Assembly: GCA_030390025.1 (NCBI GenBank)
Contig: CM059431.1
Coordinates: 109,804,001 to 109,868,000, forward strand
Source: Squalus acanthias
Taxonomy: Eukaryota
Direction of reading: 5' to 3'
DNA: 64,000 nt
In this document: piece after piece, positions 43,545 through 64,000 of the stretch
Numbering within the stretch: position 1 is the stretch's first letter
Layout: each line of letters starts with the position of its first letter
Translations under genes and position numbers: made by a program
The notes under the pieces: model-generated
The model's input: the letters and a program-made list of their open reading frames with translations, nothing else
What the model was told of the DNA's origin: nothing
Database searches by the model: none

Positions 43545-43750
43545 AATAATCAACATAACAAAAACAGATTATCTGGTCATTATCACATTGCTGTTTGTGG
43601 GACCTCGCTGAGCGCAAATTGGCTGCCGTGTTTCCCACATTACAACAGTGACTCCACTTCAAAAGTACTTCATTGGTTGTAAAGCGCTTCGAGACGTCCG
43701 GTGGTCGTGAAAGGCGCTATAGAAATGCAAGTCTTTCTTTTCTTTCTTTC
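43545..43750 (+). mobile_element. SacSINE1-like 3' half
   Basis: Matches about 2690-2877. Confidence 0.82.
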
Positions 43751-54548: not shown

Positions 54549-55015
54549 TCACTGTGGCTTGGTGGGTCGCACTCTCGCCTCGGAGTCAGAAGGTTGCCGG
54601 GTTCAAGTCCCACTCTATGAGACTTGAGCACAAAAATCTAGGCTGACGCTCCACTATTGAGGGAGTGCTGCACTGTCGGGGGTGCCGTCTTTCGGAGGAG
54701 ACGTTAAACTGAGGCTCCCGTCTGCTCTCTCTCAGGTGAACATAAAAGATCCCATGGCCACTATTTCAAAGAAGAGTAGGGGAATTATCCCCGGTGTCCC
54801 GGCTAATATTTATCCCTCAATCAACATCACTTAAAAAACAAAACAGATTATCTGCTCATCGCTGTTTGTGGGAGCTTGCTGTGCGCAAGTTGGCTGCCAT
54901 GTTTCCCTACATTACAACAGTGACTACACTTCAAAGAAAAAGTACTTAATTGGCTGTAAAGCACATTGGGACATCCTGAGGTCATAAAAGGCGCTATATA
55001 AATGCAAGTCTTTCT
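54549..55015 (+). mobile_element. SacSINE1/DeuSINE-like SINE, full length
   Basis: Same family as 2414-2877. Confidence 0.88.
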
Positions 55016-55934
55016 ATGATCTCAAACTAACAAAGATTTAAACAGCTTCCCTATAGTCACCTTGAGAATAAAGATGCACTATCCCAGGGATAGAAGCCTG
55101 TGAAGTAATATGAGAATTCATGGATTGTTTTGAGAACTATAAATGACAGGTTATCATTTCATCCCTTATTTTACAGTTCCTAGCTAAGTGGATTGTTCCC
55201 GTTCAGTGCTGCTCAGTGCATTGCATCTATCTCCATGAATTATTCAGAAAGGATTGTGGTACTATTTTTTTTACTTTCCATCTATTTTTGCTCTTGCTCC
55301 TTCTTTAGATTTCCGCTCTTGTTTTTCCTTTGGTGGTAGCAGCAAAGCAAAAGATGTCTGACACCAGTGAATGAGGTAAAGGTGACCAAGAGCTGGGCTC
55401 CCTCTCCCAGGAGATGGCATGACTCAGGAGGGAGCGATTGTGGGGATGGGGATGATGGTGTATGATAGGACAGGACAGGCTCAGTGGACCAGCTGGTCCT
55501 ATTCCTGTCCTTTTTCCCATGCTCGTATCCCATTTTCTAAGTGCAGCATTCACACTGTATACAGGCCCCGATTTTAACTCCAGGTGGATTCCCCACTCAG
55601 GCCTGAGTTAAAATTACAGTCGGGTCTCAATGATGTCATTGGGCCGCAACATGCAGATGTAAAGAAGGACCCCGTCGGCTCCGGGCACGTGTCCTTGCTG
55701 CCTGCTCAGGAGAGCAGCTTAAAATTGTAGCTTTTCCAATCATGGCGGCTTTCGGACAGGTAAGAGCCTGGGCGATTTTAACTGCCCACCCGCCAGGTTT
55801 CTGCTGAGCGAGTAGGGTTAAAATCACCCCCCCACCGCCCCCACCCCCCTCCCTCCAAGACTCTGGGCTCAGTAACTGCTGTGGATACTTTCTGCTGCCT
55901 GAGCTAAAGAATGTGAAATTTACCAATTTTTATT

Positions 55935-59811: not shown

Positions 59812-60074
59812 CTGTAAAGCACTTTGGGACATCCTGAGGTTGTGAACGGCGCTATATAAATGCAAGTCTTTCTTTCTTTTATCCTCTGAACAGCAGGAGG
59901 TTGCACAGGATGGAGAGAAGATGGAGCAAGAAATCCATCTGCCTACCGCCACTGAAACAAGGCTGCATTTAATTGTCAATTGCTTACAATAAAAAAAAGT
60001 TATTGAGAGAAATAAAAATCCTCCCCTCGTGGCTGGTCACGACCACACCCCACAACTGCCTCTTTAAGAATATA

Positions 60075-61064
60075 ATAGCAAAATACTGCGGATGCTGGAA
60101 ATCTGAAATAACAACAGAAAATGCTGGAAATATTCAGCAAGTCAGGCAGCATTCGTGGAGAGAGAAACAGAGTTAACGTTTCAGGTCTGTGACCTTTCGT
60201 CACAACTCGAAAAATTTAGAGAGCTAACAGATTTTAAGCAGGTGCAAAGGCTGCGAAAGTGGGGAGGGGAGGAAAGAATAAAAGGGACAGTCTGTGATAC
60301 GGTGGAAGGCAGGAGTGGTTAAATGTTGCAAATGGGGATGGCAGAATCATCAACAGCTGCCATGTGAAAAATTAGGGGCAGAGGTTATGGTCTGAAATTG
60401 TTGAACTCGATGTTGAGTCCAGAAGGCTGGAAAGTGCCTAATAGAAAGATGAGGTGCTGTTCCTCAAGCTTACGTTGAGCTTCATTGGAACAGTGTAAGA
60501 GGCCGAGGACAGAGAGGTCAGGGTGGGAGTGGAGCGGAGAATTAAAGTGACAAGCGACCGGAAGCTCGGGGTCACCCTCACGGACGGAACGGAGGTGTTC
60601 CGCAAAGCGGTCACCCAATCTGCGTTTGGTCTCCCAATGTAGAGGAGACCGCATCGTGAGCAGCGAATACAGTATACTAAATTGCCAGAAGTACAAGTAA
60701 ATCGCTGTTTCACCTGGAAGGGGTGTTTGGGGCCCTGGACAGTGGGAAGGGAGGAGGTAAAAGAGCAGGTGTTGCATCTCCTGCGCTTGCACGGGAAGGT
60801 GCCGTGGGGAGGGGAGGGGCTGTTGGGGGTGATTGAGGAGTGGACTAGGGTGTTGCGGAGGGAGCGGTCCCTTTGGAATGCTGAAAGGGGAGGGGAAGAT
60901 ATGTTTGGTGGTGGGATCATGCTGGAGGTGGCGGAAATGGTGCAGGATGATCCGTTGAATGTGGAGGCTGGTGGGGTGCAAGCTGAGGACAAGGGGAACC
61001 CTATCATGGTTCTGGGAGGGAGGGTAAGGGGTGAGAGCAGAAGTGCGGGAAATGGAATGGACAC
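60075..61064 (-). mobile_element. Penelope-like element 3' part: GIY-YIG endonuclease (frameshifted) + pLTR with degenerate hammerhead
   Basis: CKRRRCNTC, FTCTSGNLVYCIRCSRCGLLYIG / ETKRRLGDRFAEH...RKLEEQHLIFLLGTFQPSGLN; hammerhead-like 60170-60208. Confidence 0.92.
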
Positions 61065-61258
61065 TGTGGTAACACAATACAGCTTCCTGTGACTCGAACT
61101 TTATTGCATCACTTCCTGTGATTAGTCCAGGATAAATACTGGACTGAGCAGTTGGATCCTGGAGAGGCATAGAGTAAGACCTCTTTTGTATGTAGCACCT
61201 TTTTAGTTGATTAAAGCTTACTTTAAGTTCACCACGCGTAAGGCTCATTCTTACGACA
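61065..61258 (+). mobile_element. 5' LTR (194 bp) of a Gypsy retrotransposon inserted into the Penelope element
   Basis: tgtggtaa...ttacgaca termini (7/8 inverted match); ATTAAA 61210-61215; gag follows; 3' LTR is outside the window. Confidence 0.75.
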
Positions 61259-61336
61259 ATTTAATCAACTTTGAAAAACTTCGCACTCAAACTTTTTGGA
61301 CGAACTCGGAACTAAGGATCCAGGGAATCACCCATC

Positions 61337-64000
61337 ATGGAAAACATCCTTAAACCATCGCGTCTTGACTTGGACCCAAACACCCCAGCAGCCGGTAAGG
61401 TGTGGAAACACTAGTATCGCACGTTTGACAATTTTCTCGAATATTGCAAGGCTGATGATGACACAAAGTTGCGGATACTCATCAACTGTGTCACTCCGAA
61501 TGTATTTCAGTACGTTGAGGAATGGGGCAGTTACGAGGAGGCAATTCGGACGCTTAAAAGACTATATACTAAGACACCGAATGAGGTCTATGCCAGACAT
61601 CTACTAGCTACAGCCCAACAAGGGCCGGAGGAATCCATTGATAAATTCCTCCAAGAGCTTCGCAGACTTAGTATGGACTGTAACTTTCAGGCGGCCTCAG
61701 CTGAGCTGTACCGTGAAGAAATGATCCGTGATGCTTTCATCTGCGGGCTTGCCTCCCCATTTATACGCCAGCGTCTACTGGAAAGTAAGACACTTGAGCT
61801 TCAGAGAGCTTATGACATGGCTTGCTCTCTAGATCTGGCAAAAAGAAATGCAGACCTTTATACAGTGCCCAGACCTCGGTCTGCTGCCTTAACTACAGTC
61901 AGGCAATTTAAGAGGCCACAGGTGAACTCTATTAGGGAGGACTTTATCCCTGACGATCAATCTGATGACTTCACTGATGAAGAGGATGATGACCCCACTG
62001 TGGCAGCCTCTTGGCAATCTAAGAAATGCTTCTTTTGTGGTGATGAGTTTCACCCTCGGAAATTCTGCCCTGCTCGCAATGCGTTTTGCAGTCATTGCAA
62101 CAAAAAGGGTCATTTTGCAAAGGTTTGCCTATCAAGAGCCTCTACGAGGGCTTATCAAGCTAAGTCCTACCGAACTGCCCCGGTAAGGGCCTATCAAGAT
62201 GTTCCGGCTAAAATCTATCGTGCTTCCTCTCGGGTTTTCTCTCGAAGAAACACACCTAGAGTTTCAGCCACTCTTTGTGCAACGACACCAATTACAGCTG
62301 CTTGTCCTCAGAACCTATTCCATGCAGCTACAAAAGCATCAATTAATGGACATACTTTAGATGCCTTAATTGACTCAGGTAGCACTGATAGTTTCATTAG
62401 GGAACAGATTGTTGCAGAGTTAAAGCTACATGTTTTCCCATCGGACCAGGCAATTGCGATGGCTCAGTCATCACTTAATACCAGAATTTCTGGCTTTTGT
62501 ATGGTTGAAATAACACTTAATGGTCGCAGGTATCCCTCCACCCGGCTTTCGGTGCTCAAGGACTTATGTAGTGATCTTATCTTAGGGCTGGATTTTCAAA
62601 AGCAGCATAAGAAACTCACCATTGAGTTCGGCGGATCCAAACCTGAACTCACTATTTCTAATATACGACCTCGATTACCGTTCTGTGCATTGTCAGCAGC
62701 TTCACTGGATGAACCCTCACTGTTTACCAGTATCCCTCCTCGATGCAAACCGATTATAACAAAGTCACGACGTTTCAGTCAGGAAGACCAGTCTTTTATT
62801 GCGGCTGAGATTTCTCGGCTTTTAGCAGAGGATATCATCGAGCCTTGTTCGTCGCCATGGCGCGCCCAGGTCGTTATTGTTAAGAACCCTCTACAACCTC
62901 ACAAGAAACGGCTGTGCATTGACTATTCACAGACCATCAATCAATATACGGACTTGGACGCATACCCATTGCCGCGCATCGATGATATGGTTAATAAACT
63001 GGCTGAGTACACGGTGTTCTCAACATATGATCTGAAAAGTGCCTATCATCAGGTACCCTTGAAGGTCTCAGACAAGCAGTATACGGCCTTTGAAGCCAAT
63101 GGACGGCTGTATCAATTTCGTCGCCTCCCCTTTGGGGTCACTAATGGAGTGGCTGTCTTCCAGCGAGCAATGGATGACCTGGTCAAACAGGAAGACTTGA
63201 AGGATACGTTTCCTTATCTGGACAATATTACTGTCACAGGTCGCAATCAGCGGGAACATGACGCCAATCTCCAATGATTTTGGGATGCACTCCAGCACCG
63301 TAATTTGACATTAAATGCGGCTAAATCCATTGAGTCACAACCAACCATCAACATCCTTGGCTATTGTGTGGGCAATGGCATCATTAAACCTGACCCTGAA
63401 AGGCTTCGCCCACTCCAAGAGCTCCCGCCACCTAAGAATCCGGCCTCCTTGCGCCGGGCCCTCGGCCTGTTTGCATACTATGCTAAATGGATTCCTAACT
63501 TCTCGGACCGAATCCAACCTCTACTGAAGGCCAGCACATTCCCACTAGACACAGCGGCTGTTGCAGCCTTTAACCTCCTGAAAAAACAGTTGGAGAAAGC
63601 GGCTCTTCACTCCATCGATGAGAGTCTTCCTTTTGTTGTTGAGTGTGATGCCTCGGAGGTGGCGATCTCGGCCACTCTGAATCAGGAAGGTCGTCCGGTG
63701 GCATTTTTGTCCAGGACTTTTCAAGGGGCTGAGCTACATTATCCTCCAGTCGAGAAAGAAGCTACAGCCATCATAGAGGCAGTACGGAAGTGGACTCATC
63801 TCCTAGCTCGCCAGCACTTTACCTTAATCACGGACCAGCGATCGGTCGCCTTCATGCTCGATAATCGAAAACGGACCAAAATTAAAAATAATAAAATCCA
63901 GCTTTGGCGGCTGGAATTGGCCTCTTTTGGTTACACCATCCACTATCGACCTGGCAAGGAGAATGTGGCTCCGGATACCCTCACACGAGCATTCTGCTCC
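61337..64000 (+). pseudogene. Ty3/Gypsy gag-pol in one frame (Gag with two CCHC knuckles, protease, RT, RNase H); two nonsense codons; runs off the window
   Basis: ATG 61337; CFFCGDEFHPRKFC and CSHCNKKGHFAKVC; LIDSGS; RLCIDY, YDLKSAYHQ, LPFGVTNG, YLDN; ECDAS...EKEA...TDQ; stops TAG 61412-61414 and TGA 63275-63277. Confidence 0.93.

Follow-up and report, generated by a model that had tools for sequence, protein, structure and literature searches.

The retrotransposon that begins at position 61065 of the window (the whole stretch of Squalus acanthias DNA analysed here, 64,000 nt) probably starts reverse transcription from its own RNA and not from a tRNA. We put the probability of this reading, Tf1-type self-priming in a compact, chromodomain-less and metazoan-wide Ty3/gypsy clade, at roughly 0.8. 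tRNA-independent self-priming was proposed in an initial annotation of the bare sequence and is supported here by the limits of the LTR, by the missing TGG beyond it and by a pairing between LTR and primer site that is kept in relatives.

The window lies in contig C7 of a 3.7-Gb genome (G000) and carries only the 5' part of this LTR retrotransposon, the 3' remainder falling past the window end. The next 9.9 kb past the window was analysed as L031, in which position p corresponds to window position p + 60499. Across the window and L031 the whole element measures ~4.45 kb, with a direct repeat at 4,247-nt spacing. The 3' LTR (L031 4813–5006) is identical to the 5' LTR at all 194 positions, and the purine tract GGGGGGGGAGAA stands directly 5' of it. 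Both ends of the element are flanked by GACAC. Logan contigs from public runs that carry further copies of the surrounding host repeat join position 61064 to the sequence that follows the 3' LTR (X1, 8 contigs; X3, 9; X12, 1), an empty site that is visible because uninterrupted copies of that repeat exist. The identity of the 3' LTR, the 5-bp target duplication and the empty-site contigs show that the LTR limits assumed in the initial annotation (61065–61258) were right. The 5' LTR ends in ...CTTACGACA at 61258, and direct reading of the sequence beyond it likewise bears out the reported lack of a TGG-type primer-binding site. The window copy is a very recent insertion of a high-copy, compact Ty3/gypsy LTR retrotransposon. 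Coordinates of all features are collected in Table 1.

The insertion lies within another, far more abundant repeat (60950–61064 and L031 5007–5060), and contig depth over 60950–61007 reaches thousands. A SINE-like repeat family, D6, has five copies in the window that are 81–100% alike (484–550, 2810–2876, 43678–43744, 54955–55021 and 59813–59879). Several further dispersed repeats are also present in the window.

Table 1. Features of the element and its insertion site (window coordinates unless L031 is given)
Feature	Position	Strand	Evidence or remark
Target-site duplication GACAC, 5' copy	61060..61064	+	Same 5 nt after 3' LTR at L031 5007-5011; empty-site contigs
5' LTR, 194 bp, TGTGG...CGACA	61065..61258	+	194/194 identity to 3' LTR
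Left arm, proposed self-primer, AGTTGATTAAA	61205..61215	+	Exact reverse complement of 61260-61270; 3' end A61215, then GCT
ATTAAA hexamer in left arm, possible poly(A) signal of 3' LTR copy	61210..61215	+	Sequence
Remainder of R and U5 (43 nt); predicted hairpins 61216-61228 and 61237-61255	61216..61258	+	Minimum-free-energy fold of 61205-61285
Single spacer A between LTR end and primer site	61259..61259	+	CAA before right arm in 17/23 families
Putative primer-binding site (right arm), TTTAATCAACT	61260..61270	+	Complementary to own LTR; TGG here in 0/23 families
Leader, primer site to gag ATG	61271..61336	+	Sequence and translation
gag-pol frame	61337..64000, continuing to L031 4794	+	Translation, Pfam
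Two CCHC knuckles	62027-62128	+	Translation
Protease	about 62333-62596	+	Pfam Asp protease
Reverse transcriptase (RT)	about 62903-63271 and onward	+	Pfam RVT_1
RNase H	about 63560-63928	+	Pfam RT_RNaseH
Integrase	past window, in L031	+	Pfam rve, Integrase_H2C2

The Pfam domains follow the order protease, RT, RNase H and integrase, with a gag carrying two CCHC knuckles upstream, which is the order of Ty3/gypsy elements (Metaviridae). The nearest solved structure is the Ty3 Gag-Pol (E = 5.7e-26 and 3.4e-26). Both knuckles of the double CCHC motif named in the initial annotation are real in the translation. The single open frame named alongside them fails for the window copy, which has two in-frame stops (61412–61414 and 63275–63277), and stands for other copies of the element, which carry open frames of ~1,325 aa. 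No Chromo family was found among the seven Pfam matches of the window protein (E ≤ 1), nor among the 25 most frequent of the 33 Pfam families matched by 16 aligned clade members.

RT motif C (63215–63226) reads YLDN instead of YXDD and aligns with the YLDD of Ty3 (phmmer). In a set of 240 homologues (P0001–P0240) the motif was matched 133 times, 109 of these reading Y/F-x-D-N and 24 YLDD. The second Asp is thus missing from the RT motif of a plainly active clade, which is odd; no report pairing 'YLDN' with reverse transcriptase was found in the literature searched.

The two arms of the proposed primer helix, TTTAATCAACT and AGTTGATTAAA, pair at 11/11 positions. This exact match was confirmed by direct reading, as was the placing of A61205 within the initiator-like TTAGTT (61203–61208) and of ATTAAA within the same 11-mer. 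The helix has no direct extension, T61204 facing T61271; three more pairs are possible in the window copy upstream of A61205, beyond a 2-nt mismatch. The chance of such a match was estimated with dinucleotide shuffles of the LTR, scored for a match to a word starting 0–3 nt after the LTR. A match of at least 11 nt arose in 2/20,000 shuffles, and none of 2,660 mock positions inside the element reached even 9 nt. The minimum-free-energy fold of 61205–61285 includes the arm helix and two small hairpins (z = -2.49); over the longer context 61165–61300 the fold energy was no better than that of shuffles (z = -0.27). No consistently placed TATA-like motif was found upstream of the arms.

The element family is very young and abundant in this genome. 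A first look gave 3,159 LTR candidates, and all of those scored (40/40) were 98–100% identical. The primer site was unaltered in 30/30 other genomic copies, and six more copies, obtained as upstream pieces from a search with the ray protein P0120, were all of the same family with the same arms (6/6). A second LTR subfamily (runs X1, X3 and X10; compared over window 61107–61260) differs over 154 nt by 13 substitutions and a one-base insertion and has a different first 40 nt, with both arms unchanged. Within the family no covariation signal was obtained, the copies being 99–100% alike and the left arm identical in 29 of the 30. Because copies inside the genome were too alike, relatives were gathered by protein instead.

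The RNase H-integrase part was aligned with 15 homologues, and this alignment served as query for a scan of metagenome contigs. A relative was encoded in 289 of 600 stretches, and the best 80 of these 289 (43–75% identity) were kept, chosen on integrase/RNase H protein similarity alone. Gag starts were located by tblastn, the window gag being read through its stop with X, and the longest inverted repeat was sought in the 400 nt upstream. The arm/primer-site pair was this longest repeat at 21 of the 24 gag starts with upstream sequence. These 21 have a common layout: GCC or ACC comes after a left arm whose last bases are ..AAA, ..CAA immediately precedes the right arm, and the gag ATG stands 0–33 nt further on. 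Such a short leader leaves no room for another primer site; this, and a position 1 nt past the LTR end, identify the right arm as the primer-binding site. The three exceptions lacked a perfect arm pair of at least 9 nt. They are L089, whose LTRs are 74% alike, a second element in L075, which has a palindromic 9-mer only, and L110, in which the 5' LTR leaves one mismatch in an 8+8 stem and the 3' LTR copy pairs perfectly with the primer site.

Comparisons across the clade used 23 families, the window and 22 relatives, with L110, L043, L073 and L107 joined to the 21-of-24 set. Left arms were all distinct (23/23). Perfect stems ranged from 8 to 18 bp (median 13), and the interval between the arms from 21 to 70 nt, spacer included. 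The junction ..AAA/RCC was conserved, with GCC, ACC or GCT after the left arm in 21/23 families and CAA 5' of the right arm in 17. In relatives with complete LTR pairs the LTRs measured 140–255 bp, and wherever both LTRs were present the right arm started at the end of the LTR repeat or 1–2 nt from it. No poly(A)-tailed contig was seen among the 80 metagenome loci.

A hairpin right after the arm recurs as RCCUA..loop..UAGGY (GCUUA..UAAGU in the window, 61216–61228). A stem of at least 4 bp directly follows the junction in 15/23 families, each case being weak relative to shuffles. With a mean stem of 4.1 compared to 3.5 in shuffles, a second conserved hairpin after the arm is not claimed. Some contigs are circularly permuted: both ends repeat a coding stretch in L035, L041 and L044, and in L043 the contig end overlaps its start, with the LTR just before the end. 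They look like assemblies of one-LTR circles or of tandem copies.

Retention of the pairing in relatives had been set beforehand as a test of self-priming, and matched changes on both sides of the helix were found across the clade. In alignment A3 (MAFFT; 21 regions, 14 helix pairs and 294 cells, with the misaligned left arm of L044 kept in), standard pairs filled 93.2% of cells, compared to 71.7 ± 1.5% with shuffled partners. Changes on both sides were seen at 11/14 pairs, and double-change cells numbered 58 as against 15.1 ± 3.0 in shuffles. None of five covariation measures was reached by any of 500 shuffles. Sliding the partner by 1–3 columns, which keeps relatedness, lowered pairing to 22–50%. 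With the alignment alone as input, RNAalifold returned this helix as 13 pairs, with compensatory change at 10. G-U pairs made up 5 of ~274 paired cells. Single steps of change were also seen between near-identical LTRs: L036 (CAAGTTTATTAAA / TTTAATAAACTTG) and L042 (CAAGTTGATTAAA / TTTAATCAACTTG) differ by one coupled change, T/A against G/C, and L032 and L033 likewise by one. The pairing is a property of the clade, kept by matched changes.

The course of priming can be proposed by analogy with Tf1, in which the first 11 RNA bases pair with the primer-binding site and RNase H cuts between bases 11 and 12 (PMC7175516, available part). Genomic RNA of the present element would have its 5' end in the LTR, at 61205 or slightly upstream. 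Its 5' segment AGUUGAUUAAA would fold onto 61260–61270, closing a 44-nt loop made up of A61259 and the remainder of R-U5, and the RNase H of the element would cut after A61215. The 3'-OH would then be extended through 44 nt of template, from A61259 back to G61216, yielding a minus-strand strong-stop DNA that would transfer to the R copy at the RNA 3' end. Plus-strand synthesis would copy the attached RNA primer and thereby rewrite the primer site as an exact complement of the arm. Such copying of the primer back into its site would account for stems without mismatch, for single changes coupled across the helix and for the scarcity of G-U pairs. This scarcity favours templated copying, since selection on RNA folding alone would tolerate more of them. 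In most relatives the pairing runs 1–7 nt upstream of the column equivalent to 61205, so the RNA start is not fixed at that column.

The initial annotation further suggested that the primer doubles as a poly(A) signal in the 3' LTR. By sequence this would be possible in part of the clade: the arm ends in a canonical AATAAA or ATTAAA in 12/23 families, and the other 11 have GTTAAA, TTTAAA, TGAAAA (L073) and similar words. A broader proposal, which we regard as tentative and rather doubtful as a whole, is that a metazoan-wide chromodomain-less clade, from cnidarians to cartilaginous fish, abandoned tRNA priming, that one helix may serve both as primer and as mask of the poly(A) signal, and that the arms co-evolve by templating and not by selection. 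The 5' end of R would then be the primer of reverse transcription and, in many families, the poly(A) signal as well. Pairing with the primer site would arm the primer and hide the 5' poly(A) signal, and the partnerless copy in the 3' LTR would stay active. Co-evolution of the arms by templating would again explain the near absence of G-U pairs.

The helix could also be a regulatory or packaging RNA structure, for example one that hides the 5' poly(A) hexamer, with another primer being used. We consider this unlikely. Occlusion of a poly(A) signal by a 5' hairpin is known from HIV-1, and the canonical hexamer at the left-arm end in 12 families would suit such a role, as would the presence of the arm complement only downstream of the 5' LTR, which would leave the 3' copy unpaired. 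However, the 11 families that lack a canonical hexamer, L073 among them, still keep the helix. The right arm moreover occupies the primer-site position, 1 nt from the LTR and, in relatives, 0–33 nt from gag, where none of the 23 families offers an alternative TGG site. G-U pairs are nearly absent, and a folding constraint alone would tolerate them. A regulatory structure is therefore better taken as a possible second function of the helix than as a replacement of priming.

If a small RNA of the host, for instance an internal fragment of a tRNA, paired with 61259–61276 and primed there, the LTR match would be secondary. Half-tRNA primers do exist in some Copia lineages (PMC6317226, available part). 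This reading is nevertheless very improbable, as the 23 families have 23 different primer sites, each matching its own LTR, and any host primer would need to change along with each family. Such diversity argues against a tRNA primer. Contigs L036, L042 and L037, whose assembly prefix is the same, each have a different primer site, a finding that a shared tRNA primer cannot explain. The comparison with host tRNAs suggested at the outset covers two species, tRNA-Lys(UUU) and tRNA-Cys(GCA), and within these genes (Rfam tRNA search, 30 loci) complementarity to the primer site did not exceed 5 nt. The anticodon loop of tRNA-Lys(UUU) shares 7 nt (TTTAATC) with the primer site and was rejected as primer, the match being in the same sense and thus of the wrong polarity. 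Tandem arrays of tRNA-Lys(UUU) genes with ~1.77-kb spacing were seen in the genome (G000 C29:13254729-13265435, C2208:415715-426494, C1484 and C1516). Coincidence, conceivable because both arms are A/T-rich and a searching reader could find short matches by chance, is refuted by the shuffle and mock-site tests, by the covariation test and by the same architecture with other sequences in 22 relatives, and its probability is negligible.

Self-priming of this element would widen the known range of tRNA-independent priming to a compact non-chromodomain clade spread across animals, with more than 3,000 near-identical first-look candidates in this genome. It makes a testable prediction: the RNA should start at 61205 or slightly ahead of it and be cut after 61215, and the strong-stop product should be 44 nt of DNA on an RNA primer. 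In genome annotation, tools that seek tRNA primer sites will label such elements 'PBS-less'. Host defence may be affected as well, since such elements would escape silencing by tRNA-derived fragments that target primer sites.

Self-priming is usually presented as a peculiarity of Tf1/sushi chromoviruses. It has been shown or assayed experimentally in the Ty3/gypsy elements Tf1 and Tf2 of Schizosaccharomyces pombe and Tj1 of S. japonicus, and to our knowledge self-primed reverse transcription is proven only in such fission-yeast Tf1-type elements. Tf1 is generally known to have a single gag-pol frame, a trait it shares with the present element. Self-priming in the Tf1/sushi group (sushi-ichi and relatives) was reportedly treated by Butler et al. 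in 2001 (J Mol Evol 52:260) and is also said to go back to Lin and Levin (1997); a 2006 article by Atwood-Moore et al. reportedly concerns, by its title, the copying of the Tf1 primer into the primer site. Like Tf1, Tf2 and Tj1, the present element has no tRNA primer site, and a segment of its own LTR complements the primer-site position, over 11 nt both in Tf1 and here. Unlike them, it has no chromodomain that could be found, a much shorter LTR (194 bp) and animal hosts. Its arm also differs in ending at the conserved ..AAA/RCC junction, often with a poly(A) hexamer.

In plants, self-priming was predicted from complementarity between primer site and LTR for the gypsy chromovirus Tcn1 and the copia element TAR, and for 12% of the elements surveyed (PMC6317226, available part). 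These belong to different superfamilies or clades and to different hosts than the present element, and the part of PMC6317226 available gives no covariation test. According to PMC4600332 (available part), self-priming is implicated in elements of hosts ranging from fungi to vertebrates, and PMC6317226 describes it for the Tf1/sushi group 'from yeast and vertebrates'; as far as their available text goes, both sources treat Tf1/sushi as chromoviruses. As with the Tf1/sushi elements of vertebrates, we are dealing with a vertebrate Ty3/gypsy element to which a self-priming reading applies. It is set apart from them by its features, with no chromodomain found and an LTR of 194 nt compared to a mean of 572 nt in the Sushi LTR training set (PMC3601003, available part). 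The mechanism proposed is of a known kind, and no prior report of it was found for the present clade.

Homologous proteins, all of them named 'uncharacterized', come from hosts including Nematostella, Hydra, Xenia, molluscs, crustaceans, a tunicate, a rotifer, a ray and a catshark (55–79% identity). The RNase H-integrase part is 70–79% identical to cnidarian (Nematostella, Xenia) and metagenome proteins (P0121–P0124 and others) and 58–59% identical to those of ray and catshark. This higher identity to cnidarian than to ray and catshark proteins suggests, at the level of sequence, that the element either spread horizontally between marine animals or has evolved very slowly. No link between Mag elements and self-priming was found in the literature searched, beyond which other papers may hold one, and the available part of PMC3601003 does not connect the two. 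By published descriptions, the Mag C clade contains SURL and has metazoan hosts including vertebrates (PMC3601003 and PMC8220671, available parts). The present element resembles it in being non-chromoviral, in its metazoan hosts including vertebrates and in its short LTRs, 194 nt against a Mag C training-set mean of 174 nt (PMC3601003). Its compact single-frame layout is like that of Jule, which has 4.8 kb and 202-bp LTRs. The Mag C LTR-end motifs TGTNATRT and AYANAACA, as given in the same source, are each fitted by the window LTR at 6/8 positions, compared by eye. On this comparison by description, the element fits the Mag C clade with SURL in LTR length, in host range and in being non-chromoviral.
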